IMG/VR virus record: IMGVR_UViG_3300025012_000071
Source of the DNA: an uncultured virus (IMG/VR IMGVR_UViG_3300025012_000071)
Lineage: Duplodnaviria > Heunggongvirae > Uroviricota > Caudoviricetes
Length of the DNA stretch: 20,000 nt
Reading direction: 5' to 3' (one strand)
The notes under the pieces are model-generated. The model saw nothing but the letters and a program-made list of their open reading frames with translations. It had not been told where the DNA came from and searched no databases. The position numbers and the translations under genes are program-made. Position 1 is the first letter of the stretch, and each line of letters starts with the position of its first letter. This document shows positions 1-15,739 of the stretch, one piece after another.

Positions 1-39
1 TTTAGAAATGGTAAAGAAGATGTATGAGGAGGAAGTCAA

Positions 40-366
40 ATGAGAACATGCCGCATTAACGCATCGCCGGATCAGATTAAGCAGATAGTGGAAACTATCA
101 AGGGTGCTAATCCCGACAGTCTCTTAGTGTTACCGCCTGTCAATCCTATCAGCGTATATTCACCGACCAAGAAAAAGAAGTATCACCGGATAACCGTTGA
201 ACTCGTAATACCGGAGGGTGCTTTAAATAGTTCTGCCGACCTTACTGATTTCGGAGTTTTCGCTGTGCTGAGGATACCCGAAAAACATATTTCAGAGCAG
301 TATTTAGTGGATAAAAAGAAGGAGGATACCACTAATGCCGAAACAGAAACGCCACAAACAACCTAA
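40..366 (+). CDS. hypothetical phage protein
   Basis: 108-aa ORF with GAGGAGG SD upstream; no family recognised. Confidence 0.7.
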   Translation: MRTCRINASPDQIKQIVETIKGANPDSLLVLPPVNPISVYSPTKKKKYHRITVELVIPEGALNSSADLTDFGVFAVLRIPEKHISEQYLVDKKKEDTTNAETETPQTT

Positions 367-523
367 ACTAAAAATCATCGTTGACCTGCCGAACGAGAGC
401 AACCGGAAATGGTACGACGAGAAATACCGGAATATGTTCAAAGATCGCCGGGGTGTTTTACACGATTACCGGGATGGAATGTCGCCGGGGTATTGCGTGG
501 CAGCGGTGGAGGTAGTGAGTTGA
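335..523 (+). CDS. hypothetical protein
   Basis: AAGGAGG SD before ATG 335; stop overlaps the TTG start of the methyltransferase. Confidence 0.65.
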   Translation: MPKQKRHKQPKLKIIVDLPNESNRKWYDEKYRNMFKDRRGVLHDYRDGMSPGYCVAAVEVVS

Positions 524-2124
524 TTAACGAAATGACGATGGGTTCACTATTTGACGGAGTGGCAATGTTCCCACTAGCCGCAGAACGCAACGGAATTAAG
601 GCAGTTTGGGCGAGTGAGATAGAAAAATTTCCGATGGCGGTTAGTCGGTTAAGATTTCCCGACATGAAACACCTTGGCGATATTAAAGATATAGGATTAT
701 GTACCTATATCACACATTTCAAAGGTACTAAATGTAATTTTTATATAAATACATCTAAAGACGTTTTAGTTAAACCTGTGGATATAATCACTTTCGGCAG
801 TCCATGTCAGGATCTAAGCGTAGCAGGTAAGCGTGAGGGGATGGCAGGAGAACGATCAGGATTGTTTAGTCAGGCGATACGGATAATTAGAGAAATGAGG
901 TTTGTGACAAATGGAGAATACCCTCGATACGCAATATGGGAGAACGTACCCGGAACATTTAGCAGCAACTCGGGACAGGATTTTAGAACCGTGCTTGAAG
1001 AAATCACAGCGGCCGAAATTCCAATGCCTAAGTCTGGAAAGTGGGCAAAAGCCGGAATGGTCAGAGGGAATGGGCATAGTGTTGCTTGGAGAACACTCGA
1101 TGCGCAATACTGGGGAGTCGCCCAGCGTCGTAAGAGAATCTTTCTTGTCGCAGATTTTAGAGGTCAACGTGCCGGCGAAATACTTTTTGAGCGCGAAAGC
1201 ATGTCAGGGGATTTTGAGACGAGCGGAGAAACGAGGAAAGAAGTTGCCGGAAGTGTTGGAAATGGCATTGAGACAACAATCCTCTTTGAACCACGAAGTC
1301 AGGACGGAGTACCAAGAATTCACGAAAGCGGAATCTGCCCAACTCTTAACACAGCACAGGGGGGGCAACGGCAACCATGTATAGCGCAACCGATGGCATA
1401 CTCTTTTGATGCACTCGGAAGTAACTCGATGAAGTCAAGCAACCCCCATAGTGGAGGAAGATTTATTGATACCTGTTACTGTTTGGATACGTCAGTTCCA
1501 GAACCTTCTAAAAATCAGGGCGGTATTGCAATACTTGAACCTAAAGCATACGTTATTCAATCCGCAACCATGAGCGGAGATAAGAAACAAAACGGTTTAG
1601 GTGTGTCAGATGGTCCGTGCTATACGCTTGATTGTCGGGCGGATCATGCGGTTGCTTATGGCATTAGGAACGCTCCGAAACCCAACATAGGAACTATTTG
1701 CGCAAGCGGAGCAGGGACAAACAGACCAGCAGGGCAGGGGAATGAAACTGATTTAGTTATCTGTTATCCCGAACCTGCAAACGCTCTGCTTGCAAAAGGT
1801 AATCTGTCATACCGTGCCGATGTGGATAATTTAGTTTGTGCTGTAGATGTCAGAAACCTTTACGAAACCGAGGAATTAAGCGGAACACTGCAAAGCAAAA
1901 ACACAGGTGGTTATTCGCTTAACTATCAAAATCCTGTTAGGGTTGGTTATGCGGTAAGGCGACTCCTGCCAATCGAAACGGAGCGCTTAATGGCGATGCC
2001 GGACGGTTGGACCAATATTCCCGGAGCGAGTGACACGGCACGTTACAAGGCGATTGGCAATTCATTGGTTATGCTGATACCTGATTGGATATTTAGTCAG
2101 ATAGTTAAACTGCATGTCAATTAG
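520..2124 (+). CDS. DNA (cytosine-5)-methyltransferase, possibly multispecific
   Basis: Motifs I (SLFDGVAMF, atypical), IV (GSPCQD), VI (ENV), VIII (QRRKRIF), IX (RRLLPIETERLMAMPD) and X (RYKAIGNS). Start re-assigned to TTG 520, with GGAGGT at 508-513. Confidence 0.95.
   Translation: MINEMTMGSLFDGVAMFPLAAERNGIKAVWASEIEKFPMAVSRLRFPDMKHLGDIKDIGLCTYITHFKGTKCNFYINTSKDVLVKPVDIITFGSPCQDLSVAGKREGMAGERSGLFSQAIRIIREMRFVTNGEYPRYAIWENVPGTFSSNSGQDFRTVLEEITAAEIPMPKSGKWAKAGMVRGNGHSVAWRTLDAQYWGVAQRRKRIFLVADFRGQRAGEILFERESMSGDFETSGETRKEVAGSVGNGIETTILFEPRSQDGVPRIHESGICPTLNTAQGGQRQPCIAQPMAYSFDALGSNSMKSSNPHSGGRFIDTCYCLDTSVPEPSKNQGGIAILEPKAYVIQSATMSGDKKQNGLGVSDGPCYTLDCRADHAVAYGIRNAPKPNIGTICASGAGTNRPAGQGNETDLVICYPEPANALLAKGNLSYRADVDNLVCAVDVRNLYETEELSGTLQSKNTGGYSLNYQNPVRVGYAVRRLLPIETERLMAMPDGWTNIPGASDTARYKAIGNSLVMLIPDWIFSQIVKLHVN
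911..1384 (+). CDS. nested out-of-frame ORF inside the methyltransferase, M.EcoHK31I beta-polypeptide-like
   Basis: 157-aa +1-frame ORF with its own SD (GAGGT 897-901). Contains LSQILE..VPAKYFLSAKACQGILRRAEKRGKKLP, which I recall as typical of ORFs nested in phage C5-MTases. Confidence 0.7.
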   Translation: MENTLDTQYGRTYPEHLAATRDRILEPCLKKSQRPKFQCLSLESGQKPEWSEGMGIVLLGEHSMRNTGESPSVVRESFLSQILEVNVPAKYFLSAKACQGILRRAEKRGKKLPEVLEMALRQQSSLNHEVRTEYQEFTKAESAQLLTQHRGGNGNHV

Positions 2125-2233
2125 TCAACCATAATCCAAAATAACCGCAGTAGCGACTCCGTACAGCGACGTAAAACTACAGGACATGCTTTTATACCTG
2201 TTGTCGTGATTGGGGAGTAAAAGGGGGTTTGAA

Positions 2234-2626
2234 ATGGCAAGACCGTCAAGGGTTTTACTTAAAGAAGAATTGGCGTATATGAAGCAATGGGCAGCCAAAG
2301 CGTCCTGCGCTAACATCGGTGAAAACTTGCTAATGTCGGAGCAACAATTGGGCGCATATATGAAAAAACACGGTATGTCGAGAGCGAATAAGGGTGCTAG
2401 ATACCTTGTTGTGCCGGATAGATATACAGGTCCGACTTCCTATGTGCAGCGAGGTAGAGACAATAGGTTTGTAAACCTCTTTACTAGACATAAAATCGAA
2501 GGAAATGTCAAGTTGCCGGAAAAACCTTGGAGCATTGAGCAGAGTTTTGAAAACCCTATCTTGTTGGTGAGTGCAACCGCAGGGGTGATGATTTGGCGCA
2601 ATAGCGGTAAGGGTGAATGTCTATGA
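2234..2626 (+). CDS. hypothetical protein, possible HTH
   Basis: ATG 2234 with AAGGGGG SD; helical N-terminus. Confidence 0.6.
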   Translation: MARPSRVLLKEELAYMKQWAAKASCANIGENLLMSEQQLGAYMKKHGMSRANKGARYLVVPDRYTGPTSYVQRGRDNRFVNLFTRHKIEGNVKLPEKPWSIEQSFENPILLVSATAGVMIWRNSGKGECL

Positions 2627-2847
2627 CTACAGGCGACACGGTAAAAGTTGTCAGGATGCCGAAAGGAGTCAGGAAAACTAAGCACAAATTTGCCATTGGT
2701 GATATTGGCGAGGTTAGAAATATTTACGGCAAATGTGCTTACGTGTGGTTTGATGTTGGCAGGGGCGCACCAATTAGCACGATAAATTTGGAGGTGGTTG
2801 GTGGTAGGGAGGAAGAGCGCAGTAAAGAGGGAACAGGAAATAGGTAA
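2617..2847 (+). CDS. small hypothetical protein, KOW/SH3-like beta fold possible
   Basis: GDTVKV...GDIGEV pattern; overlaps neighbouring genes. Confidence 0.55.
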   Translation: MSMTTGDTVKVVRMPKGVRKTKHKFAIGDIGEVRNIYGKCAYVWFDVGRGAPISTINLEVVGGREEERSKEGTGNR

Positions 2848-3064
2848 GTTGAAAACCGAAGTAAGTGTTTTACAAACTAGATTTGCAGTTTTGAGTGGTG
2901 CATACAACTATCTGCGCGAGGAAAATTTAAGACTTGATAGTTTCGACTACCAGATTAAGTTGCTAAGCAAAAACTTGGACGAGGCGCAGGTAATTATCGA
3001 CAGACTGCAAAATACAGCATGGAGAAGGTTTTGTCGATGGGTACGTCTACTGTTTACGGTATAA
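2798..3064 (+). CDS. coiled-coil hypothetical protein
   Basis: GGAGG upstream; heptad-like sequence. Confidence 0.55.
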   Translation: MVVGRKSAVKREQEIGKLKTEVSVLQTRFAVLSGAYNYLREENLRLDSFDYQIKLLSKNLDEAQVIIDRLQNTAWRRFCRWVRLLFTV

Positions 3065-3141
3065 TGTAGTTGAGAAGGGGAGAAAATTAGGGTGATTTAA
3101 TGCACATTAAAACATACAAAATCTCTCATATAACTCAATAT

Positions 3142-3369
3142 CCCTACTAAGGGTTGTCGAAATCGGACATTGAGACTAAATCAGTCAACAGATAACTACC
3201 CTCAGTCGAGAGGATGTCCGTAGAAGTTCCGGAGATACACCGGGCGCCATATGTGCTAGACGTAAAATTGAGCATGGTTAGGGTTATCTATAGCGGTTCG
3301 TTGCCGTAGGATGTCAATACGGTCCTGCAATCCCACTTAATCTGATAAATCAGGTTATGGTGGCGCAGG
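3142..3369 (+). ncRNA. candidate structured RNA of unknown class upstream of the PAPS-reductase-like gene
   Basis: Pairings CGGACAT 3164-3170/ATGTCCG 3214-3220, AGATAAC 3190-3196/GTTATCT 3283-3289, CCGTA/TACGG 3304-3322 and a long hairpin 3324-3369; no long ORF. Confidence 0.5.
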
Positions 3370-3372
3370 TAT

Positions 3373-4059
3373 ATGAGAGTGGTTGTAAGTGTGTCGGGAG
3401 GCAAAGACTCTACTTATTTAACGGCATATGCTCTTTATAGATATGGTCGAGAAAATTGTATCTTTGTTAGTGCTGACACTGGTTGTGAGTTTCCAGAAAC
3501 ATACGAATACCTGAACTATCTCGAAATAAAGTTGGGTATAAAAATACATCGCATTAAAAGCGATAAGTGGGATTATTTTTCTTACTGCCGACATAGAAGT
3601 AAGTTTCCTGATGCTAGAAATAGATTTTGTACGTCAGACTTAAAACAAGCACCATTAACTAAATGGATAACTAGCGCAGGTATAGACCGATACGATGACA
3701 TAATGCTAACAGGTGAGCGCAGAGAGGAAAGTAAAAAGAGGTCAACTTATCAGGAACATTATTATAACCAAAAATTGAGAATTGGCGGTTGTCGTCCGCT
3801 ATTAAACCTAACAACCGGAGATATATTTACGGGGATTAGACAGGCGGGACTTGTGCCCAATCCGGTGTATAAGCATTTTACTAGACTTGGTTGTTATGGA
3901 TGCATTTTTAATACTATTGACGAGTGGGTTCAGTTGAGTAAATTCTACCCTGACTTATTTAGTAAAATTGCAGATCTGGAAAATGAGATTGGTTACACTG
4001 TCCGGCAAGGAGAAACATTGAGGCAGTTAATTAGTCGCAAAGAAAGGGATTCAGCATGA
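3373..4059 (+). CDS. phosphoadenosine phosphosulfate reductase-like (CysH/DndC family) PP-loop protein
   Basis: SVSGGKDS PP-loop, DTGCEFPET, RFCTSDLK, GERREES..R, RLGCYGC. Confidence 0.9.
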   Translation: MRVVVSVSGGKDSTYLTAYALYRYGRENCIFVSADTGCEFPETYEYLNYLEIKLGIKIHRIKSDKWDYFSYCRHRSKFPDARNRFCTSDLKQAPLTKWITSAGIDRYDDIMLTGERREESKKRSTYQEHYYNQKLRIGGCRPLLNLTTGDIFTGIRQAGLVPNPVYKHFTRLGCYGCIFNTIDEWVQLSKFYPDLFSKIADLENEIGYTVRQGETLRQLISRKERDSA

Positions 4060-4247
4060 CACCAAAACAAGGGCAAACATACAGACATTTTAAGGGCAGC
4101 GTATACGATATTGTTTCGGTCAAAAATGACAACGTGAAATATCGTGCGCGCAGTACCGGCGTAGTTTGGAATAGGAGTTTGGAGGAATTTACCGACTATG
4201 TTTTTAGGGGATTTAAGTTAATGCGGAGATTTGAGAGGTTGATTTGA
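4056..4247 (+). CDS. DUF1653-family protein
   Basis: GQTYRHFKGSVY...VKYRA...WNRSLEEF signature. Confidence 0.8.
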   Translation: MTPKQGQTYRHFKGSVYDIVSVKNDNVKYRARSTGVVWNRSLEEFTDYVFRGFKLMRRFERLI

Positions 4248-4348
4248 TGGGCAGAAAAGTGAGCAGACCAAAGCAAGACCGGCAGACACTTTACAAAGAA
4301 TTCAAGTCTGCTGCCGAGAAAAATTTACCTAAGAAGGGGGAGAAGTAG
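4247..4348 (+). CDS. small basic hypothetical protein (33 aa)
   Basis: ATG overlaps upstream TGA, GAGG SD, fills the gap before the TS-like gene. Confidence 0.45.
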   Translation: MGRKVSRPKQDRQTLYKEFKSAAEKNLPKKGEK

Positions 4349-4349
4349 T

Positions 4350-5075
4350 TTGTTAAAACCGACAATTTTAACTTGTTTCGATATACCGGAAGTATGGTAC
4401 AGGTCGCTTTCTGAGTTATACCATGCTCATAGCGGAGGCGATAATCGGGAATACCTTGTACAACATGGAAGTTTTGAGAATCAACATAAGCGCAAGGAAC
4501 TTGACTATTTTATGGCGGTTATTACTAATCCAGGCAATAGACCGCTAACACCGATTATGCCGGAGGGTTTGAGTGTTGCGCCTCCTACAGATATGGATAA
4601 AATTGAGAAGTATTTTGCCGATTACATTATTGGTGCTGAGGTTGCCGACAATGAGGATTACACCTACGGAGAGCGCATAAGTATTAGTTTGCAGAATGTC
4701 ATAGAGATTCTAAAAATAACTCCAGACACCAACCAGGCTATTATTGAAGTTGGGCAACCTTTAGATATTTATCTGAATGACCCGCCTTGCCTGAGGATGA
4801 TCGATTGCCGGATTAAAGACGGTATGCTACATTTCATAATCTACTTTAGGTCATGGGATATATTTGCCGCATTACCTGAGAATCTGGGAGGGTTGCAACT
4901 CTTAAAAGAATACATGGCGGCAGAAATTGGGGTAAGGGATGGCGGCATGATAATTTCCTCTAAGGGCGCACACGTTTACGACTATGCCTGGGATCAGGTT
5001 AAGCAGTTAGTTAGGTTTAGGGATAAGACAGACCCTATCATCATAGACAATCCCGACGAAGGAGATATTGAGTAA
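4350..5075 (+). CDS. thymidylate synthase-like protein (ThyA/dUMP hydroxymethylase superfamily)
   Basis: YTYGERI, catalytic PPCL, FRSWD, LPEN and GAHVY motifs. Confidence 0.9.
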   Translation: MLKPTILTCFDIPEVWYRSLSELYHAHSGGDNREYLVQHGSFENQHKRKELDYFMAVITNPGNRPLTPIMPEGLSVAPPTDMDKIEKYFADYIIGAEVADNEDYTYGERISISLQNVIEILKITPDTNQAIIEVGQPLDIYLNDPPCLRMIDCRIKDGMLHFIIYFRSWDIFAALPENLGGLQLLKEYMAAEIGVRDGGMIISSKGAHVYDYAWDQVKQLVRFRDKTDPIIIDNPDEGDIE

Positions 5076-5458
5076 TGTCAATATATAATGTACGCAAATT
5101 AGGGCGCGAATACTGTCAAACAGAAGGTTCCGCGCACTATAAAGGCGGTGGTGTTGAACCCATAGACTTAATGATTTCTAAGGGCATCATCGAGGACTTT
5201 TGTATCGGCAATATAGTTAAGTACGCAACACGTTTTAAGCATACGCGCAACCTTGAGGATTTGAAGAAAGTTTCCGACTACTCGCATATTTTGGCCGGTG
5301 TGGAGTTGGAGAAGGTACAACCAAAACTGGAAATTATACCAGATGAAATGTGTTCGAGTTGTAATAAACAAAACTTTTCCAATTTAAGTTATTGTAATCT
5401 AGTATTATCCAAGACCAAAGAGTGTAAGGAAAATAACTTCTGTTATTGGGAGGGTTAA
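5075..5458 (+). CDS. DUF3310-family protein with Cys-rich C-terminus
   Basis: HYKGGGVEPID...FCIGNIVKYATR...EDLKK. Confidence 0.8.
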   Translation: MSIYNVRKLGREYCQTEGSAHYKGGGVEPIDLMISKGIIEDFCIGNIVKYATRFKHTRNLEDLKKVSDYSHILAGVELEKVQPKLEIIPDEMCSSCNKQNFSNLSYCNLVLSKTKECKENNFCYWEG

Positions 5459-5459
5459 C

Positions 5460-5645
5460 ATGAACTTCATCGAGGAACTCGAAAACGCTCCTTGGCCTAA
5501 GTTTTGCCGAGAAGCGGCAGAGCAGCGAAAATGTGAAATTTGCACTAATCCAGAACATGCTAACTCTATCAATACGCTTACTGGTGCTATAAGAAAACCA
5601 ATGTTCTGCCATATAGACTGTGATAAGAGGGAGAAAAGTAAATGA
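5460..5645 (+). CDS. small Cys-rich hypothetical protein
   Basis: GGAGG SD; CxxC motif. Confidence 0.55.
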   Translation: MNFIEELENAPWPKFCREAAEQRKCEICTNPEHANSINTLTGAIRKPMFCHIDCDKREKSK

Positions 5646-5890
5646 AAGGTCACTTCCCACAGATTAAATTTGTCAAACTAAACACAGCATCAGAGCAATG
5701 GAAACACGTTGAATCTGAGTGGAGAGAAGTTAAATTAGCAACATATCCAGAAGATAGATTGATGGAAAAAGTAGACTTGTTTCACTCTCTGGAAACTTAC
5801 TTTCGTAGGTTGGAATTTGAGGGCGTAGACGTTGAAGCATTATTCGGCAAGGTAGTACAGAAGAACCATGAGCGAGGATATTACAAATGA
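5642..5890 (+). CDS. MazG-like all-alpha NTP pyrophosphatase-like protein
   Basis: ESEWRE, EKVD and C-terminal KNHERGYY pattern. Confidence 0.6.
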   Translation: MKGHFPQIKFVKLNTASEQWKHVESEWREVKLATYPEDRLMEKVDLFHSLETYFRRLEFEGVDVEALFGKVVQKNHERGYYK

Positions 5891-6055
5891 TCGCAAAAAT
5901 GGACATGCGAGTGCGGAAAGGAAAATCAGGCCAACGTATTCTCATCGGGGGCAACGACAGTAAAATGCTCCCGGTGCTATGAGGATCACATCATGGAAAC
6001 GAAAACTATCGTAACTAAGTTGAGTTTCGGTAGAACGGAGATTAAAGGGAGTTGA
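5887..6055 (+). pseudogene. frameshifted zinc-ribbon protein (MIAK/WTCECG...KCSRC)
   Basis: ATG 5887 with GAGG SD; the zinc-ribbon frame 5900-6055 is reached by skipping one A of the A5 run at 5895-5899. Confidence 0.5.
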
Positions 6056-6059
6056 TTTT

Positions 6060-6314
6060 ATGTCTAAAGGAACTCCTTGGAGCGCAGAGGAAAAGGAAAT
6101 AGCGAGTCGCAACTTAACGATTAACGATATATATAATCTATTCCTCCGTAATGAATTTAATCGTAGTAGAGAGAATATCCGCAGATGGAGAAATACAAAC
6201 GGTATGGGCAGTTTGAAAAAGTCTGACTTAATAACTGTGCCTAAAATAGATAAAAAACCGAAAGAGCGTAAACGCTTTCCGGTGGGACTTCGGGATTGGT
6301 TGATGTTCGGATGA
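6060..6314 (+). CDS. Myb/SANT-like HTH hypothetical protein
   Basis: WSAEEKE...RSRENIRRW pattern. Confidence 0.55.
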   Translation: MSKGTPWSAEEKEIASRNLTINDIYNLFLRNEFNRSRENIRRWRNTNGMGSLKKSDLITVPKIDKKPKERKRFPVGLRDWLMFG

Positions 6315-6514
6315 AAAAACGCAAAGTAAAGAAAACTCCCCATTGTGGGTGGTGTCTCTCAAAACTCCACCCCGGCAAGATGGGGTGGATTAGGGTACTA
6401 AGTAAAAACTGCTTGCACAAGAACGGCAGGTTTAAGTCGTGTAGGCATTTTAGGCCGAACATGGATCATCCTAAGTGGAAATATGAAGGATTTAAGGATT
6501 TTGGAGGGTGTTAA
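6311..6514 (+). CDS. basic Cys/His-rich hypothetical protein
   Basis: ATGA overlap with the previous gene; CxxC, C, C. Confidence 0.55.
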   Translation: MKKRKVKKTPHCGWCLSKLHPGKMGWIRVLSKNCLHKNGRFKSCRHFRPNMDHPKWKYEGFKDFGGC

Positions 6515-6515
6515 T

Positions 6516-7046
6516 TTGAAAGTATGCGGAATTGATGCGTCCTTAACGAGTACAGGGATAGCAATATTGCATTGCAATAATGAACCGATAACTACAGCAG
6601 TAAAGAATAATTTAACCGGGATACCGAGACTAATCTATGTGCGCGACTATGTTAAGCAGGTTATCGAGGGCGCAGACTTAGCGGTTATCGAAGGATATGC
6701 TTTCAGTAAGGGAGATTTTGCCCATGCTAAGGGTGAATTGGGTGGAGTATTGCGCCTGATGATTGTTGATAGCGGAATGAAATTATTGGAAGTTACACCT
6801 AATCAACTAAAGAAGTTTGCAGTAGGCGATCACAATGCAAGCAAGGAAAAGGTTGCCGTAGGTGTATATAAGCGTTGGGGTAAGGAATTTAAGGAGAATG
6901 ACGAAACGGACGCTTATGTATTGGCTGAAATCGGCAGGGCATATTTAGGACTAACCGATAAACTGACCGCATATCAGCAGGAGGTTATTGACGCTCTGCA
7001 TGGCAAGTCGGAGGTCAGGAAGAGAAAAGCAAGGGGAGGAAAATAG
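6516..7046 (+). CDS. ruvC: RuvC-like Holliday junction resolvase
   Basis: GIDASLTSTG, VIEG, PNQLKKF..G...ASKE, NDETDA; TTG start with GGAGG. Confidence 0.88.
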   Translation: MKVCGIDASLTSTGIAILHCNNEPITTAVKNNLTGIPRLIYVRDYVKQVIEGADLAVIEGYAFSKGDFAHAKGELGGVLRLMIVDSGMKLLEVTPNQLKKFAVGDHNASKEKVAVGVYKRWGKEFKENDETDAYVLAEIGRAYLGLTDKLTAYQQEVIDALHGKSEVRKRKARGGK

Positions 7047-7049
7047 ATT

Positions 7050-7655
7050 ATGGGTTGCGATATTCATGTTTACTTAGAGGTTAAAAAACATATAAACGAC
7101 ATAGAAGAATGGGTAAGTGCTGATTTATTTAAACTAAATCCATATTATCCTGGAGACGAAGAAGACTGTGAGCAACAATATGAAATTTGCCATGCATATA
7201 GAAATAGAGACTACGAACTATTTGCAACATTGGCAGATGTGAGAAATTATAACGGCATAGCACCCATATCGGAACCAAAAGGAATGCCCGATGATTGCTG
7301 TCAAATGGTCATTAATGAGTGTAGAAGATGGGGCGGGGATGGGCACTCTCATAGTTACTTTACGTTAAGAGAATTACAGCAATATGCAGACAGTAAGATT
7401 AAGACAAAATACCAGGGATATATGTCACAAGAAGAAGCTGAAAAGGTAGATAAGGGAGAAATGCCTACCATGTGGTGCGGTTGGGCAAATGAAAAATTAG
7501 GATTTGTTTACCGAGAATGGGAATACGAAGATAATATTCTTGATTCACTTATTAGTTCTATGGTAAGGAGAGTTCATGAAACACACTGGCTTAATGAGGA
7601 ATATTTGAAAGAAAACCCAGATAAGCTAAGAATGGTTTTCTGGTTTGATAATTAA
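7050..7655 (+). CDS. conserved hypothetical phage protein
   Basis: MGCDIH...RDYELFATLADVR...HSHSYFTL..L...RMVFWFDN pattern typical of a phage family; function unknown. Confidence 0.8.
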   Translation: MGCDIHVYLEVKKHINDIEEWVSADLFKLNPYYPGDEEDCEQQYEICHAYRNRDYELFATLADVRNYNGIAPISEPKGMPDDCCQMVINECRRWGGDGHSHSYFTLRELQQYADSKIKTKYQGYMSQEEAEKVDKGEMPTMWCGWANEKLGFVYREWEYEDNILDSLISSMVRRVHETHWLNEEYLKENPDKLRMVFWFDN

Positions 7656-7845
7656 CAATAATATGACCGATCAAGAAAACCAACTAACCAGTGAGTTTAT
7701 CGCGTTCTGCGAGACTCACCGGGAAAAGTTAGCAGGGATGAAGGATAACTCAACTAGGATGAATTTTATGCAGGAGAAGTTGCCGCATATACCGCAATAC
7801 CTCGTATTGAGGGCGGTTAGACCTTATTTGGTTAAGGGGGTTTGA
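7645..7845 (+). CDS. hypothetical protein
   Basis: ORF within the operon; start uncertain. Confidence 0.5.
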   Translation: MIINNNMTDQENQLTSEFIAFCETHREKLAGMKDNSTRMNFMQEKLPHIPQYLVLRAVRPYLVKGV

Positions 7846-8054
7846 TGTTGCGTAGTATTGTTATTGAAACTGTACTTTTAGTTTACGGTTGCTCACTGGA
7901 AATACATTTACCGCTTTGGAAACAGCACTCATTCAACGGCAGAGCAAATTTCCGCAGCAATGGCAGTAACTTTTGCCGGAGTCATTTTCGCAGGCCTCGC
8001 GCTAATCTGTGGTCGGGGCAGAGAAAAAGGCAACAAAGTGATCAACAATGTTAA
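7842..8054 (+). CDS. hypothetical protein, frame uncertain
   Basis: AAGGGGG SD; an alternative frame gives a more hydrophobic C-terminus. Confidence 0.3.
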   Translation: MMLRSIVIETVLLVYGCSLEIHLPLWKQHSFNGRANFRSNGSNFCRSHFRRPRANLWSGQRKRQQSDQQC

Positions 8055-8905
8055 AGTTTTATGTATCTAAAAACAATAACAGACTTAACCGCCGCCCGTG
8101 GGTTCCTGAGTATATAACTGACAACCTTTGCCTTAACCCTATATATAAGACGGTGAGAATATATAGGGGGGGGGTGAACGTCCTCCTTGACTCAGGAGCG
8201 TTCCAAGATGTTGATAAGGATAAAAGACTGACGTATGAAGAAGCACTTAATCGTCAACTCAATTTTGAGCAGGCGGCAGGTTTTGTGTCTCAGCGAATAG
8301 TCAGTTATGACAGGTTAGTTGACGAGCAGTTGAAAGAAGGTAAAAAGGTAAAATGTCGCGTTGACGAGGACAACGGTTGGGAATACGTCAAAGACACTGT
8401 GGGAGCTGCACAGTATTTAGTTAGTCAACGGGATAAATTAGCACCTCGTCAGTTAGTTTTGTCTAATCAGGGTACGACTACAGAACAATATTTGACCTGT
8501 CTAAAAGAGGTGTTACGCATAGCGCAACCGCAGGACTGTATTGGGATGGGTGGGTTTTGTATAATCGGGGCGAGAAAAACACTACAACCGCAATTTTTTG
8601 AAATACAGGAGAAGTCATTTCCGCTAATAAAAGATGCCGGCATAACCGATATTCACCTGTTCGGGGTAACTGCTATACCTGTACTTGAAAGATGGGTAGA
8701 AATAGCAAGACCATATGATTTTAATCTCAGCGTTGACAGTTCATCAGCAGAGCGCAGATCAGTTTTTGGTGGTGTATTTAGTCCCGACACTGGCAAATGG
8801 GAAGCGAAATACACCAGACAAGACAAGTATATTAACTATCATCCGAGGGACTTAGCATTAATCAATACAATAAACTTTAGGGATTATTTGGAGGGCATAG
8901 CGTGA
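8048..8905 (+). CDS. tRNA-guanine transglycosylase-like (TGT/DpdA-like) protein
   Basis: LLDSGAFQ, NQG, IGMGG, IHLFG, SVDSSS TIM-barrel motifs; no C-terminal CxCxxC zinc site. Confidence 0.8.
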   Translation: MLKFYVSKNNNRLNRRPWVPEYITDNLCLNPIYKTVRIYRGGVNVLLDSGAFQDVDKDKRLTYEEALNRQLNFEQAAGFVSQRIVSYDRLVDEQLKEGKKVKCRVDEDNGWEYVKDTVGAAQYLVSQRDKLAPRQLVLSNQGTTTEQYLTCLKEVLRIAQPQDCIGMGGFCIIGARKTLQPQFFEIQEKSFPLIKDAGITDIHLFGVTAIPVLERWVEIARPYDFNLSVDSSSAERRSVFGGVFSPDTGKWEAKYTRQDKYINYHPRDLALINTINFRDYLEGIA

Positions 8906-9417
8906 TAGTATTTCTTTACGTAGCGGCAATTTTGGCCGGAAATTGGTTATCTAGCACCTTCGCACCCGTAAACATTGGCCCATTTTTAATAAGTTTAGGC
9001 ACATTTACGATAGGGGCAACTTTTATTCTCAGGGACTTAGTGCAACAAAAACATGGCAGATATATGACATATGCGTTCATAAGTGTAGCACTTCTTTTAT
9101 CACTGATACAATCGGCAACAATGGGACAGGGTTTACCCGTGGTCATTGCTTCTATAATAGCATTTGCGGTAAGCGAAACAACCGACACTGAGATTTACAC
9201 GAGGTTAAAACTGCCGGTCCACTGGCGTGTGTGGTGGTCAGGTTTCGTTGGAGGAATACTTGACAGTACGGTGTTTATTGTGCTTGGACTATCACCTTGG
9301 GGTATGGGATTTATGCCTTGGTCAGTAGTTCCGATGGCGATAATTGGACAATCGCTGATAAAGTTAACTATGCAGGCAGTCGGGGCAGGTATGGTAAAAA
9401 TGGGAGGTCGTAAATGA
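8902..9417 (+). CDS. VUT/YhhQ-family queuosine-precursor transporter
   Basis: Multi-TM protein with GATFILRDLVQ, ASIIAFAVSETTD.EIY and S..VGGILDSTVF motifs; GTGA-coupled to the TGT-like gene. Confidence 0.85.
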   Translation: MIVFLYVAAILAGNWLSSTFAPVNIGPFLISLGTFTIGATFILRDLVQQKHGRYMTYAFISVALLLSLIQSATMGQGLPVVIASIIAFAVSETTDTEIYTRLKLPVHWRVWWSGFVGGILDSTVFIVLGLSPWGMGFMPWSVVPMAIIGQSLIKLTMQAVGAGMVKMGGRK

Positions 9418-9854
9418 GTAAAATACCTCTCGCTGATCCGTTCAAACAAGAAAAACTAATAGTCGCTAACTATCTAATCAACTATCACGACATAAAACAT
9501 CAGTACGAGCAGGACCGGGAGAGAATACTCGAAAACTCTCCCCCACCTCCCGACGGTATGCCAAGAGGTAGCACGACAGGCAATAGGACGGCATCGGCAG
9601 GGATCGCATTGGCATCGTTAGCGGTAACGGAAACGTGGTTGCAGGTAGTTAAGGAATTGGTAGCAGGTTTGAATGATGATGATAAACTACTGTTGGGATT
9701 AAAGCGGACGCATAAGGATTATGTGCGCGGAAGTTCGGTGAAAAAACTAATTGTCATGGAACTTGGGGTAAGTATGAGAACGGTTTATAATCGCTGGCAG
9801 GTGATATTGGAGCAGGGACGGACGTTGGCGGTTAGAAGGGGATTATTGCGGTGA
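9414..9854 (+). CDS. ArpU/RinA-like late transcriptional activator
   Basis: Last gene of the replication/metabolism operon; C-terminal HTH ELGVSMRTVYNR. Confidence 0.7.
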   Translation: MSKIPLADPFKQEKLIVANYLINYHDIKHQYEQDRERILENSPPPPDGMPRGSTTGNRTASAGIALASLAVTETWLQVVKELVAGLNDDDKLLLGLKRTHKDYVRGSSVKKLIVMELGVSMRTVYNRWQVILEQGRTLAVRRGLLR

Positions 9855-9880
9855 GCAGGGGAGAGATCCCCTGCTTTGCT
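9854..9880. terminator. hairpin terminator between convergent operons
   Basis: AGCAGGGGA-GAGA-TCCCCTGCT 9-bp stem with GNRA loop. Confidence 0.75.
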
Positions 9881-9881
9881 G

Positions 9882-10262
9882 TTATTGCGAAAAAGGTAAA
9901 TAATTCGTAAGAAAATCAACTAATTTCTTACCTTCGGGAGTAAGTATTTTACCTCTCCACAAACATCTATTACACCTACCGCGGTCATTCTTGTCTGGTG
10001 AATTATCAGGATCGCCATTGCAGACGGGGCAAACCTCTTCCATAACAATACCTTGGAAAGAGTAAAATTTAGGGCGATTAAGCAACTTAAATATCTCCAC
10101 ATGATGTTTCTTAATAGCGTCAACTGCCTGCTCTACTGATATTTCCATGATATGTCTACCGAGCGGTAAACCTACTTCAAACTTAATGATGTCCTCAATG
10201 TCAGGACTTTTAATAATTCCTGACAAGATATCTCCAACTAATTTATTAATCTTATCTTGCAT
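9882..10262 (-). CDS. protein with anti-TRAP-like C-terminal zinc-finger domain
   Basis: EEVCPVCNG...CNRCLWRGKILTPEGKKLVDFL resembles B. subtilis anti-TRAP. Confidence 0.6.
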   Translation of the reverse strand: MQDKINKLVGDILSGIIKSPDIEDIIKFEVGLPLGRHIMEISVEQAVDAIKKHHVEIFKLLNRPKFYSFQGIVMEEVCPVCNGDPDNSPDKNDRGRCNRCLWRGKILTPEGKKLVDFLTNYLPFSQ

Positions 10263-10311
10263 AATTATTCCTCCCCTGGGGTTTAAGGTTCACCCCGAAC
10301 CGTTTTAATAA

Positions 10312-10644
10312 CTAAGGTATCATAAACCTTTTGACTCCTGCTATCAACCCCTTACCGTCCCTAACTGCCGAATCAGGGCCAGTGTCGGGGCAAATAACGT
10401 CTGACCTGGAACCGCCCAAAACCTGAGCGACAAGTAGGGCAACTATATAGATTGTTCCTTCCACCTGTTCGGGAAGGTTTTCAATGCTCCCGTAAATGGT
10501 TTTGTGTACGGGCAGACCATTGACGGTATGAGAAAATTCTGATCTTGAAGCAACACGAGCAGCCGTTCCGGCATTAGGGAAAACATACTCTTCGCCGCCG
10601 TAACACAACTTTACGTCGTGTGGGGTAAGGTTGATAATGTTCAT
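10312..10644 (-). CDS. conserved hypothetical phage protein (NLTPH family)
   Basis: MNIINLTPH...LPE...YIV...RSDVICPDTGP..VRD; AAGGAGG SD. Confidence 0.8.
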   Translation of the reverse strand: MNIINLTPHDVKLCYGGEEYVFPNAGTAARVASRSEFSHTVNGLPVHKTIYGSIENLPEQVEGTIYIVALLVAQVLGGSRSDVICPDTGPDSAVRDGKGLIAGVKRFMIP

Positions 10645-10692
10645 TTTTCCTCCTTCATGGTCGGTATTTTTAGCCCCGACCGGCTATTTATT

Positions 10693-10857
10693 TTAGTCTA
10701 CGTAAACTTTAAACATATTTAGGTTGTGGTGATATGAAACTCCGGCAACTTTAACCGCAGTGTCTACGGTATGAATAAACATACCGATTTGCGGCACAAA
10801 ACATAGATTAAGCGCAAATATAAGACGTTTACCTGTGTAAAATTCGCATGTATACAT
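10693..10857 (-). CDS. small hypothetical protein (54 aa, not in the ORF track)
   Basis: MYTCEFYTGKRL...FKVYVD with AAGGGGG SD. Confidence 0.6.
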   Translation of the reverse strand: MYTCEFYTGKRLIFALNLCFVPQIGMFIHTVDTAVKVAGVSYHHNLNMFKVYVD

Positions 10858-10919
10858 CTAAAAATCCCCCTTGTTTTAATCCTTCGGCATCCCCTGACAA
10901 GGCAGGAGATAACGAAAGA

Positions 10920-11222
10920 CTAACGCTGTCCTTGAAGTTCAAATAGTTTTTCAATAACCTCCTCTCCGATGACTTCTTTAACGTCCCTGTCTTTCAGGGA
11001 TCTAATGGTTATCCCCGACGTAGACAAGGCGCAGAACGAAAATTTCAACCCCATTTCTTTTAACTTCGTAATTTCTTCGGGTGCAGAGTTTACTGATACC
11101 TCCTTCACCCAAAATCTTGCTTTGCCTACCTTACTGTAAGGCATATGACTATAATCCATTGCGAGCAATTTACCGCGTATACTAAGTAGTGTTATGCCCT
11201 CTATCCTTATTGCAGTTTTCAT
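10920..11222 (-). CDS. hypothetical protein
   Basis: GGAGG SD; overlaps the upstream stop. Confidence 0.65.
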   Translation of the reverse strand: MKTAIRIEGITLLSIRGKLLAMDYSHMPYSKVGKARFWVKEVSVNSAPEEITKLKEMGLKFSFCALSTSGITIRSLKDRDVKEVIGEEVIEKLFELQGQR

Positions 11223-11398
11223 TTTTCTTCCTCCCCTTGCAATACCTCTTTAACAGTGTTGCAGACTCTAAAACACTGTGTTTTAAGTGAGCAGGTAAAG
11301 CAGCATATTACGCCAAAAGTTATTTCACACTGGAATGGATGTGAAATATTGCACTCACGATCATTGACAAGATGCTTACATTCCGTTATTCTTTTCAT
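11219..11398 (-). CDS. Cys-rich hypothetical protein
   Basis: Start re-assigned to ATG 11398 (GGGAGG SD); multiple Cys. Confidence 0.65.
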   Translation of the reverse strand: MKRITECKHLVNDRECNISHPFQCEITFGVICCFTCSLKTQCFRVCNTVKEVLQGEEEK

Positions 11399-11447
11399 CT
11401 TTATTCCTCCCTCTGTGGTTTTCGCGGTTGACCACAAACCAGATTTT

Positions 11448-11915
11448 TTATAGTAGTTCGCAATCTCCAATATAAATCCACTCCAGGATTTGCGCAAAAA
11501 ACTCTATTTTTTCCTGAACACAAGGGTAACTGCTTTCTCTAACGTCCCAACTATAATATGGTGCGCGGAACTCTCTGACTGGGTTTTTCTCTAAAACTCG
11601 ATCTGCTTTGATCTTGTAGACGCTCGGTTTATTTGCTCCACAACCTACACTGGTTTCTGCTGCGCTGTAACTATCTTTATAGACGAATCCAGGCAACTTA
11701 GACTTAACCTGCTCATGGAGGTAGTTTTCCACTAACTCCAGATCCTCCTGGGTTGGATTTAAGAAACAGAACGCGAACGGAAAATTACAGCAACTTCCTT
11801 CCTCAAAAACCCTGAGTGACTCTATTTCCTTAATCTCGGCAGGCATTACCCACTTATCAAATGCCTTTACACGGTACGGGAAAAAATTCTTTCTGGACAT
11901 CTGGATAGTTTTCAT
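11448..11915 (-). CDS. hypothetical protein
   Basis: 155 aa, GGGAGG SD. Confidence 0.75.
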   Translation of the reverse strand: MKTIQMSRKNFFPYRVKAFDKWVMPAEIKEIESLRVFEEGSCCNFPFAFCFLNPTQEDLELVENYLHEQVKSKLPGFVYKDSYSAAETSVGCGANKPSVYKIKADRVLEKNPVREFRAPYYSWDVRESSYPCVQEKIEFFAQILEWIYIGDCELL

Positions 11916-12721: not shown

Positions 12722-12791
12722 TATACTACCTCCTTAGTTTTTAATCTCCTACCCAACGTCCGTTAGACGCTCGGCAGGGGATTAAACCCTG

Positions 12792-13118
12792 CTAGTCAAC
12801 AATATCGGACTCCCTAAACTGCCAGCGTTCACCGCAGTTCGGGCAAACGGTTTTGTGAAGATGCTCCCCGGTTTGCATATATTCGCGCTCGTTGCCATCA
12901 ATCGTGCTGTCAAAATGTAGTTCTGCACCACAATCACAAATCTTATTTAAGTCTATATTCATCTTTTTTTCCTCCTTCGCCGGTTCTCCCGGCATAAATT
13001 TTCTAACAACTACCTCACTAATTCCCTTCCCTTCCCTCTTTGCCTGCTCCTTCAGTTTTCGGGCAAGCGGCTTGGGGAAGGTTATGCTGATGCGTATTTT
13101 GTCTTTAGGTATAGTCAT
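12792..13118 (-). CDS. ribbon-helix-helix (CopG/Arc-like) regulator fused to a zinc ribbon
   Basis: RISITFPKPLARKLKEQAKREGKGISEVV; C-terminal CDCG...CPNCG; start ATG 13118 (AGGAGG); internal in-frame SD and ATG at 12962. Confidence 0.75.
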   Translation of the reverse strand: MTIPKDKIRISITFPKPLARKLKEQAKREGKGISEVVVRKFMPGEPAKEEKKMNIDLNKICDCGAELHFDSTIDGNEREYMQTGEHLHKTVCPNCGERWQFRESDIVD

Positions 13119-14753: not shown

Positions 14754-14816
14754 TTTGTCTGTCATCCTCAGAGCAGGTAGACAAATTCCTGCTGACCGGG
14801 CGAACCCGGTTTCGAC
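14754..14816 (-). ncRNA. type II hammerhead ribozyme with loop I/3'-tail pseudoknot
   Basis: GUC-GAA-ACCGGG-UUCG-CCCGGU-C^AGCAGG-AAUUUGUCUA-CCUGCU-CUGAGGA-U-GAC-AGACAAA; predicted cut between 14794 and 14793. Confidence 0.88.
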
Positions 14817-15034
14817 TAACCTTCCAGGTAGATTTCCATGTCTGCGCCTGTGTAGCATTGTTCCGTCTTACTGTACCAGTTCCCTTCTTCCTGCACATAC
14901 ATGGTGTGGTCGTGCAGGTTTAAGATTGCATCCTCTGGAATTTCGACTTCAACTGTGGTTTTAGCAGGTATTACAGTTTCGCCTAAGTCGGTAACTACCG
15001 TGATGTCGATGTTCTCGCCGTTGTGAATTTTCAT
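14816..15034 (-). CDS. acidic hypothetical protein flanked by two ribozymes
   Basis: GAGGGGG SD; 72 aa. Confidence 0.7.
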   Translation of the reverse strand: MKIHNGENIDITVVTDLGETVIPAKTTVEVEIPEDAILNLHDHTMYVQEEGNWYSKTEQCYTGADMEIYLEG

Positions 15035-15127: not shown

Positions 15128-15352
15128 TTATTCAACAAAATCAATCTTATAAGTAGATGGTTCGCCGTTTTCCCAAAAGTAGGGGTTTTTTCTTATCTCT
15201 AGGTCGAATCCCATTATCCTGAGTGCCTGCTTTATCCCGGATAGTTCGTGGTCAATTCTGGTTACTCCGGTTTCGCCTTTGCAGTGCTTATTATTTATGT
15301 CCAACAGGGATAGTTTGTTGTTAACCAGTTCCCTTACGTTAGTTATGCTCAT
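15128..15352 (-). CDS. hypothetical protein, first gene of the leftward operon
   Basis: GAGGGG SD downstream of a promoter. Confidence 0.7.
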   Translation of the reverse strand: MSITNVRELVNNKLSLLDINNKHCKGETGVTRIDHELSGIKQALRIMGFDLEIRKNPYFWENGEPSTYKIDFVE

Positions 15353-15401: not shown

Positions 15402-15471
15402 ATACTATCATGTGGATACCCATACCGTCTAGCCCGATTTAACGTCATATTCAGCTATTTATGGATACCCA
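15402..15471 (-). promoter_or_regulatory. promoter with TGGATACCCA operator boxes
   Basis: TAGACG-18-(TGn)TAGTAT; boxes at 15413-15422 and 15462-15471. Confidence 0.6.
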
Positions 15472-15485
15472 GCTTATCCAGCCTA

Positions 15486-15705: not shown

Positions 15706-15739
15706 AGTATAACATACTGGATATCCATATGGCAACCCA
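15706..15739 (-). promoter_or_regulatory. promoter of the RHH gene with palindromic operator
   Basis: TTGCCA-18-(TGn)TATACT; TGGATATCCA at 15718-15727 and TGGCAACCCA at 15730-15739. Confidence 0.7.

Follow-up and report, generated by a model that had tools for sequence, protein, structure and literature searches.

Compact pseudoknot-capable elements directly upstream of Shine–Dalgarno sequences in a small-gene operon of an uncultured phage

Three pseudoknot-capable elements and their placement

The 20,000 nucleotides (nt) analysed here, referred to throughout as the window, come from an uncultured Caudoviricetes virus (IMG/VR record IMGVR_UViG_3300025012_000071) and carry a minus-strand run of ∼19 small genes. 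Three intergenic elements within this run (sites 1, 2 and 3; Table 1) could each fold into a compact pseudoknot immediately 5′ of a strong Shine–Dalgarno (SD) sequence. They had been picked out in an earlier reading of the sequence by a model (the original prediction), and the three strings proved to be exact in letters, in minus-strand position and in their distance of 1–4 nt from the SD.

Each element consists of a hairpin stem (S1) and a second helix (S2) formed between the hairpin loop and a 3′ segment. S1 has 5 bp at all three sites, S2 has 5–6 bp and the entire element spans 24–28 nt. The helices follow the ABab order, in which the hairpin loop pairs with a 3′ segment, at all three sites, which places them in the H-type pseudoknot class, with connecting loops of 0 nt (L1), 0–1 nt (L2) and 4–6 nt (L3). 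The fold ends 1, 4 and 2 nt before the SD at sites 1, 2 and 3, respectively, and the ATG lies 7–8 nt 3′ of the SD at each site. Stop-to-ATG intergenic lengths are 49, 48 and 49 nt; of these, 10, 6 and 6 nt separate the stop of the preceding gene from the fold. The SD is outside the fold at all three sites, and no unpaired nucleotide is conserved across them or among their equivalents in distant phages described below.

Table 1. Positions of the elements, their downstream genes and other features of the window
Feature	Position	Strand	Remarks
Site 1, pseudoknot-capable element	10301-10278	minus	GGTTC-GGGGT-GAACC-TTAA-ACCCC, read from sequence
Site 1, helices	S1 10301-10297/10291-10287; S2 10296-10292/10282-10278; linker 10286-10283	minus	linker TTAA
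Site 1, SD and start	SD 10276-10270; ATG 10262-10260	minus	SD GGGGAGG; one A between fold and SD
Site 2, pseudoknot-capable element	10686-10659	minus	TAGCC-GGTCGG-GGCTA-AAAATA-CCGACC, read from sequence
Site 2, helices	S1 10686-10682/10675-10671; S2 10681-10676/10664-10659; linker 10670-10665	minus	linker AAAATA
Site 2, SD and start	SD 10655-10649; ATG from 10644	minus	SD AAGGAGG; fold, then ATGA + AGGAGG
Site 3, pseudoknot-capable element	11441-11414	minus	TGGTT-TGTGGTC-AACCG-CGAAA-ACCACA, read from sequence
Site 3, helices	S1 11441-11437/11429-11425; S2 11436-11431/11419-11414; linker 11424-11420	minus	one U.G in S1; S2 TGTGGT/ACCACA; linker CGAAA
Site 3, SD and start	SD 11411-11406; ATG from 11398	minus	SD GGGAGG; GA between fold and SD
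Region E, possible extended fourth member	12740-12792	minus	hairpin GCAGGG/CCCTGC, loop TTTAATC
126-aa gene behind site 1	9882-10262	minus	Anti-TRAP-like zinc motif, PF15777 E 1.9e-6, below family cut-off
Predicted 110-aa Crn4b-like ring-nuclease gene behind site 2	10644-10312	minus
59-aa gene behind site 3	11398-11219	minus
Consensus sigma-70-type promoter	13175-13147	minus	TTGACA-17-TATAAT, 12/12; heads operon with region E and sites 3, 2 and 1
Terminator-like GC-rich hairpin	9853-9876		between convergent blocks, at 3′ end of minus-strand operon; 10 pairs, 6 G-C
Pistol self-cleaving ribozyme (RF02679)	15127-15066	minus	46.5 bits, gathering score 34.5, full-length 1-68/68

To ask how special the elements are, we assembled ∼69 kb of phage sequence from IMG/VR contig G002 (59,949 nt, containing window positions 1–11068) and the remainder of the window, ∼138 kb when both strands are counted. 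On both strands of the window itself, a strict descriptor matched 6 times against 3.65 ± 2.5 in 60 dinucleotide shuffles, 10 of which gave at least 6, so that the raw number is not special, whereas the placement is. A descriptor search of this kind had been proposed in the original prediction; in relaxed form it returned 24 distinct places over the ∼69 kb, of which only the three sites lie directly before a real SD and start. An energy-based scan of the same sequence gave 41 candidates at E ≤ −9 kcal/mol, and again only the same three stand before an SD and start. Dinucleotide shuffles of the intergenic sequences reached the observed fold in 3/200, 0/200 and 0/200 cases (sites 1, 2 and 3). The test that we judge the fairest kept S2 fixed, permuted the 5′ flank and loop and required a pseudoknot-compatible register; an equally good S1 then arose in 26, 7 and 138 of 20,000 permutations, respectively. 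The three elements are not a product of chance, and the common H-type architecture claimed for them is borne out as a non-random pattern by the shuffles and by the permutation of S1 given S2. As rough Dirks–Pierce-type estimates, the pseudoknot energies are −10.2 kcal/mol at site 1, against −7.5 for the best hairpin, and −12.8 kcal/mol at site 2, against −9.8.

Region E may be an extended fourth member. An exact complement of its hairpin loop, GATTAAA, lies 4 nt ahead of an SD (AAGGAGG), which occurs by chance in 489 of 50000 permutations, and an A>G change in the loop in relatives L002 and L009 still allows pairing, as G.U.

Two other roles for the sites were tried and rejected. As for a programmed frameshift or readthrough stimulator, stop codons do lie 6–10 nt upstream, but none of the three sites has a slippery heptamer and read-through frames end after 3–24 codons; site 3 alone has a +1 frame that continues into the following gene. 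An intrinsic terminator on the minus strand was discarded since purine-rich SDs rather than a U run follow the folds, the plus strand giving only weak 5-bp matches. We also observed that the frame of the 59-aa gene is open upstream through site 3 (11398–11497, minus), overlapping the end of a 155-aa gene in the +1 frame, with no slippery site.

Variants, mobility and distant equivalents

The original prediction had described different sequences with the same pairing as covariation within one genome. The sites are non-homologous, so this is not covariation in the usual sense, and we used instead the permutation tests above together with homologous variants, taken from IMG/VR and metagenome contigs; a DNA search with 2.2 kb found no match among cultured phage records. 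Site 2 occurs in two forms, GGTCGG...CCGACC and GGCCGG...CCGGCC (L002/L008, L179), related by one compensatory U-A to C-G change, with S1 and the linker invariant across variants. The A>G half of this change (10661) is common in run X13, where the partner position is too close to the contig ends for listing. A pattern scan of IMG/VR for site 2 with S2 left free found no third variant.

The site-1 family comprises 8 variants in 11 rows. Its S2 is paired in 100% of cells, four pairs being changed on both sides (one in L002b and three in L033), and its S1 in 90.9%, with one pair changed from C-G to A-U (L166, L170 and L002b). Within the family S1 GGTT/AACC and a TAA linker are conserved, whereas S2 varies. 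None of 500 shuffles equalled the observed value on any of five measures, and sliding the partners abolished the signal. When L002b and L033 were left out the signal was not significant (34/500). L002b is independently anchored: only two substitutions separate it from L166/L170 across the element together with the conserved 3′ flank, and both are at a single S2 pair. For site 3, pattern scans of IMG/VR with S1 free and with S2 free returned the phage itself only. Unrelated sequences that share the S1 hairpins carried the loop complement in 0/6 and 0/11 sequence families. These data show real cross-genome covariation for S2, at site 2 and in the site-1 family, while the case for S1 is weaker than had been implied, with 3 of the 8 site-1 variants mismatched. 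As judged from the aligned sequences, S2 is supported by the comparative data and S1 is conserved but imperfect.

Two sets of candidate relatives were set aside. In region G (10919–10858) the stem covaries in L104, but the pairing of its loop to ACAAGG is lost in L002, L104, L003 and L005. Look-alikes in L130, L132 and L139 lie beside a tRNA gene (an Rfam call in L130) with no SD or start behind them; they were taken as unrelated and dropped before counting.

Comparison between phages also indicates what the elements belong to. Homology blocks start 0–5 nt ahead of the fold and stop at the SD/ATG. The site-1 unit was found before at least six different genes and after at least five, and the site-2 unit accompanies the Crn4b-like gene whichever of three genes lies upstream; in L179 it stands before another gene. 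Because the blocks span the unit between differing genes, the fold belongs to a ∼40-nt unit of pseudoknot and SD and not to the upstream gene, and this unit moves from one gene junction to another among a set of related groundwater phages. The small genes themselves behave as cassettes: window positions 11455–11235, which hold the 59-aa gene and site 3, are replaced by 61 nt in L004 and in X13 and X4 contigs, a 54-aa gene (10685–10877) is likewise carried by some population variants and missing from others in the metagenome contigs, and the joints of both presence/absence differences adjoin the elements.

Another junction motif, in which a covarying hairpin comes after TAGTCTTTCGT, is repeated at ∼10925 and ∼14117 of the window (minus) and at ∼107 and ∼1098 of L104. 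Its TAG is a stop codon in relatives, and the motif recurs after unrelated genes.

Equivalents of unrelated sequence are present before SDs in other phages. We surveyed the 70 nt upstream of 60 distinct distant Crn4b-like homologues (28–55% identity). A compact pseudoknot at E ≤ −8 was found in 11 of the 60 leaders, ending 8–30 nt from the ATG in 10 of these, against a shuffle expectation for the latter of 1.07 ± 0.93 (maximum 4 in 40 rounds). The 10 leaders represent 8 distinct elements, unrelated in sequence to each other and to site 2, and mostly followed by AGAAAGGAGG. An S2-type hairpin was present in 19 leaders and was accompanied by a compatible S1 in 10 of the 19, compared with 8.3% by permutation. 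Such folds also precede 16 of 155 other gene starts in the homologue loci (3.3 in shuffles), which brings the figure for all starts there to 26/215, against about 4.3 expected; L039 has three in a row. In the rest of the window's phage 1 of 48 starts has such a fold, and in an unrelated 71-kb phage (G003) 0 of 39. Over the tree of Crn4b-like proteins the pseudoknot trait is dispersed, with 6 changes, which fits a swappable leader. An A-rich linker was rejected as a general signature, A content being at background in the wider set.

One stretch of the distant phage L039 (519–646) deserves separate description: a pseudoknot of this type is followed by a 10-codon mini-open reading frame whose TGA overlaps the next ATG (ATGA), an arrangement that looks like a leader peptide with translational coupling.

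The gene cluster and its pistol ribozyme

The gene behind site 2 encodes, as predicted from fold, profile and conserved residues, a Crn4b-like ring nuclease. The AF2 model of the 110-aa protein has a predicted local distance difference test (pLDDT) score of 96.3 and matches Crn4 in Foldseek (9r7b, E 2.3e-9, template-modelling (TM) score 0.71), its profile finds Crn4b in the PDB at 1.1e-19, and 28 homologues show no change at T7, P8, H9 or R95; for Crn4 itself, the Crn4 paper describes conserved T, H and R residues (PMC12830947). It also raises the possibility that phage and plasmid Crn4 orthologues are anti-CRISPRs (PMC12830947). In the phage, the product of the site-2 gene is a candidate anti-CRISPR or anti-cyclic-oligoadenylate enzyme. 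Its homologues are found in a large number of metagenomic phages as well as in Bacillus phages Shbh1 and Mgbh1 and Paenibacillus phages Unity and Scottie, and the nearest cellular relatives are in Bacillota and Saccharibacteria. The small-gene cluster as a whole is accessory and probably anti-defence in function.

The first gene of the operon (12792–13118) has a weak ribbon–helix–helix (RHH) match (PF01402, E 0.0037, below the family cut-off). Further upstream (15706–15735 and 15455–15480, minus), a second promoter-like site carries repeated AGCTGGGT(A/T)(T/G)CCAT motifs next to two small RHH-like genes (weak Pfam matches); the repeats look like operators of an autoregulated accessory locus. 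Genes on the plus strand of the window include terminase subunits, DNA methyltransferase, 3′-phosphoadenosine-5′-phosphosulfate (PAPS)-reductase-like, thymidylate-synthase-like, RuvC, DpdA-like and Vut_1 genes. The plus-strand block 409–9854, with a C5 DNA methyltransferase, DUF3310, a weak queuine tRNA-ribosyltransferase-like match and a Vut_1/YhhQ-like transporter among its genes, suggests a DNA base-modification module of the 7-deazaguanine type.

Pistol is the only Rfam family found in the window at the gathering threshold. The copy is intergenic, between genes 15128–15352 and 14816–15034 of the same minus-strand cluster and 3.6 kb from the sites, and cleavage as predicted would put a 41-nt leader on the following gene. 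A resemblance of the three sites to the P1/pseudoknot half of pistol had been suggested, and it holds for topology only: between 9500 and 12500, the sites matched neither pistol nor any other Rfam family at E ≤ 10, and elements of 24–28 nt lack P2, P3 and the conserved core. A relative carries a type II hammerhead in its small-gene cluster (L122 3096–3155, equal to L002 99–158). Window positions 14822–14735 (minus) align to this hammerhead region at 80% column identity with a changed core and gave no Rfam hammerhead match at E ≤ 10; the stretch may be a decayed or variant hammerhead copy. A 'pseudoknot' candidate within it, region B (14815–14740), was dismissed as this diverged copy.

Proposed portable leader pseudoknots and the alternatives

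We propose, with a probability of roughly one half, that the three sites are cis-acting, portable leader pseudoknots whose role lies in the translation or the stability of the cistron that follows. Each 24–28-nt unit would fold into a compact H-type pseudoknot in which a stem of 4–5 bp is capped by a loop paired in its entirety to a downstream segment of 5–6 nt. In a polycistronic accessory or anti-defence operon with shifting cassettes, such a unit would equip the following cistron with an initiation region of its own, autonomous in translation. By sequestering the nucleotides just 5′ of the SD, the fold would leave the SD single-stranded in any upstream context, and it would present a defined structure to the platform side of the 30S subunit, as the activator pseudoknots of repZ/repA and timP do. 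With upstream stops only 6–10 nt before the folds, a terminating ribosome would be expected to melt S1. After an intercistronic cut, the fold would become a structured 5′ end beside a ribosome-bound SD and could confer 5′ stabilization as in bacteria with RNase J/Y; the pistol ribozyme takes an equivalent intergenic position in the same cluster. We infer the simultaneous formation of both stems, and each of these functional steps, from sequence. The proposal draws on published precedents: translation of repZ needs a pseudoknot near the ribosome-binding site (PMC8053102), as does that of timP (PMC11228461), a strong SD and/or an occluded 5′ end stabilizes messenger RNA (mRNA) in Bacilli (PMC3997798), and a pseudoknotted flaviviral exonuclease-resistant RNA (xrRNA) stops bacterial RNase J1 in vitro (PMC5760640).

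Several observations weigh against this proposal. Nested minimum-free-energy (MFE) folds of the three sites are no better than those of shuffles (z 0.54, −1.31 and −0.47), and at site 3 a nested 10-bp hairpin (−9.2 kcal/mol) outdoes the pseudoknot estimate (−7.3 kcal/mol). A test of SD opening backs insulation at site 1 (0/150) but not at site 2 (33/150) or site 3 (53/150). In the site-1 family, S1 is unpaired in 5 of 55 cells (an internal G.G in L006, two mismatches in L155 and the closing pair in L007b and L033), and L155, with its two mismatches, precedes the gene that stands behind site 1 in the window. Ascertainment affects part of the S2 statistics, L002b and L033 having come from a pattern for which S2 complementarity was required, and site 3 has no sequence variants at all. 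In the wider survey, 50 of the 60 homologue leaders do not have such a fold, none of four cultured phages (Shbh1, Mgbh1, Unity and Scottie) has a pseudoknot leader before its Crn4b-like gene, linkers show no excess of A (33% versus 35% background) and the control starts came from the same kind of loci, chosen by a crude SD + ATG rule. The host may not be of the RNase J/Y type. Finally, an L1 of 0 nt leaves a tight steric fit; fully paired loops of 6–7 nt are known from kissing complexes.

A rival reading has the leaders hold a plain hairpin only, either S2 with a loop of 9–11 nt or, at site 3, the nested 10-bp stem, with an ordinary leader-hairpin function and S1 as an alternating hairpin of a bistable leader or a leftover. 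Nested MFE folding selects S2 at the first two sites and another hairpin at site 3, firm covariation exists for S2 only, S1 is broken in L006 and L155, and site-1 variants differ from one another precisely in the S2 loop. Such an S1 in the pseudoknot register is nevertheless rare given S2, as the permutations show, a compatible S1 accompanies distant S2-type hairpins far above the permuted rate, and unrelated matches with the same S1 hairpins never show the loop complement; moreover, S1 and S2 have no bases in common, so nothing forces them to alternate. We consider a hairpin-only leader unlikely. More improbable still is that the ∼40-nt units act at the level of DNA, as shared linkers for cassette swapping by homologous recombination with the RNA fold secondary. 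Homology blocks that begin and end at the unit, recurrence of the same unit between unrelated genes, the adjoining joints of the 54-aa and 59-aa cassettes, the existence of a second repeated junction motif (TAGTCTTTCGT with its hairpin) and the scatter of the pseudoknot label on the Crn4b-like tree would all follow. Recombination requires identity and not base-pairing, however, and leaves unexplained the compensatory changes, the U.G pairs that work only in the minus-strand RNA and the folds of the same geometry but unrelated sequence in distant phages. A further reading, to which we give little credence, treats the folds as operators, bound by an antisense RNA or by an RNA-binding protein of the phage or the host so that translation of the accessory genes is repressed or timed. 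The position beside the SD would suit an operator, the conservation of S1 GGTT/AACC and the TAA linker in the site-1 family while S2 varies could reflect recognition, the cluster has RHH-like genes (weak match), and precedents exist in T4 gene 32 (PMC3014915), repZ (PMC8053102) and timP (PMC11228461). Yet the three sites share no sequence by which one factor could read them all, the fold leaves the SD uncovered, and no antisense promoter stands out in a promoter scan that was at shuffle level (12 versus 11.2).

That the elements are weak terminators of antisense (plus-strand) transcription from the convergent block is very unlikely. On the plus strand the S1 hairpins of sites 1 and 2 do precede T-rich runs and are listed by a terminator scan, and site 3 has a run of six T, but the U.G of site 3 becomes C.A, the stems have just 5 bp of which 3 are G-C, folding of the S1 hairpins by themselves yields −1.9 to −7.4 kcal/mol, the 12 terminator-like sites compare with 7.0 ± 2.6 in shuffles, and S2 with its covariation would go unexplained. 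Unknown motifs near ribozymes have proved to be ribozymes, and several small riboswitches are compact pseudoknots adjoining an SD; with pistol nearby and a hammerhead in a relative, the elements might be conceived as a new tiny ribozyme or a ligand riboswitch, for example a sensor of cyclic nucleotides before the ring-nuclease gene. Among these small riboswitches, preQ1-I has a 5-bp P1, an A-rich linker and a P2 adjoining the SD, and the window's phage also has genes of the 7-deazaguanine type. In contrast to preQ1-I-type riboswitches, the three sites have no Rfam riboswitch match (E ≤ 10) and keep the SD outside the fold. A preQ1-type riboswitch was rejected on these grounds, as the SD is not in P2 and there are no unpaired pocket nucleotides; the loops being fully paired, no ligand pocket is left. 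For any ribozyme or riboswitch, the length of 24–28 nt, the fully paired loops, the lack of a conserved unpaired nucleotide among the three sites or distant equivalents, the lack of an Rfam match at E ≤ 10 and the occurrence of the same units ahead of unrelated genes make the chance remote. Smallest of all is the probability that the complementarity arose by accident in G+C-rich intergenic patches: the pattern count of the window is at shuffle level (6 versus 3.65 ± 2.5), but placement, shuffle, permutation, distant-leader and site-1-family covariation tests all disfavour it.

How the proposed portable leader pseudoknots relate to known systems can be stated feature by feature. In repZ (IncIα), repA (IncB) and timP, a hairpin loop likewise pairs with a segment immediately upstream of the ribosome-binding site, and initiation at the following gene requires this pseudoknot, in a setting of two genes linked by translation (PMC8053102, PMC11228461). 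The placement of the 3′ arm just 5′ of the SD, as in repZ/repA, is found at all three sites, where the arms end 1–4 nt before it. Those pseudoknots, however, are long-range, each belongs to one conserved family, and they are under the switching control of an antisense RNA and of leader-peptide translation, whereas the three sites are compact, sequence-diverse and several to an operon, with no antisense partner evident as far as a promoter scan shows. The leader of T4/T2 gene 32 contains a compact H-type pseudoknot whose helices stack coaxially, with A/U-rich sequence and then the ribosome-binding site after it (PMC3014915), and so resembles the sites as a compact H-type fold in a phage mRNA leader; it differs in lying 67 nt upstream of the start, where it nucleates autogenous repression by gp32 (PMC3014915), and in being one gene-specific family rather than a module common to unrelated genes. 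The 5′ mRNA stabilizers of Bacillus and relatives share a stable structure beside a very strong SD, which together are reported to shield mRNA in settings dominated by 5′ decay (PMC3997798), but they are hairpins or bare SDs at primary 5′ ends, whereas the three sites are operon-internal and would need an upstream cut. The xrRNAs of RNA viruses are pseudoknotted folds that block 5′–3′ exonucleases mechanically (PMC5760640); they are larger folds that encircle their own 5′ end with a ring, which 24–28 nt cannot build. Pistol, too, pseudoknots a 5′ hairpin loop to a downstream strand and is found in phage intergenic regions, but the three sites have no P2, P3, conserved core or G-U cleavage site, and an SD follows at once.

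In the literature we found no described class of pseudoknots before SDs in phages. To our knowledge, the only translation-aiding leader pseudoknots described are a few isolated ones, each specific to its own family. The present elements fit best as leader pseudoknots that are new in being compact, sequence-diverse, portable and repeated in phage accessory operons. One operon holds this geometry three times over, in unrelated sequences, and it occurs again before a candidate anti-CRISPR ring nuclease in distant phages, which points to a structural class invisible to sequence-based RNA family searches, much as terminators are. Units of this kind may also be useful as context-proof ribosome-binding parts. 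Their cluster holds, in addition, a self-cleaving ribozyme of unexplained biological role. A broader hypothesis, which we regard as doubtful, is that phages use a sequence-free unit of pseudoknot and SD for context-independent expression of cassettes, as an exonuclease-resistant cap and/or a 30S docking aid, in company with intercistronic ribozymes; the ribozymes (pistol here and hammerhead in a relative) would then cut polycistronic RNA into separately stable messages, and the phage ribozymes, still unexplained, would gain a job.

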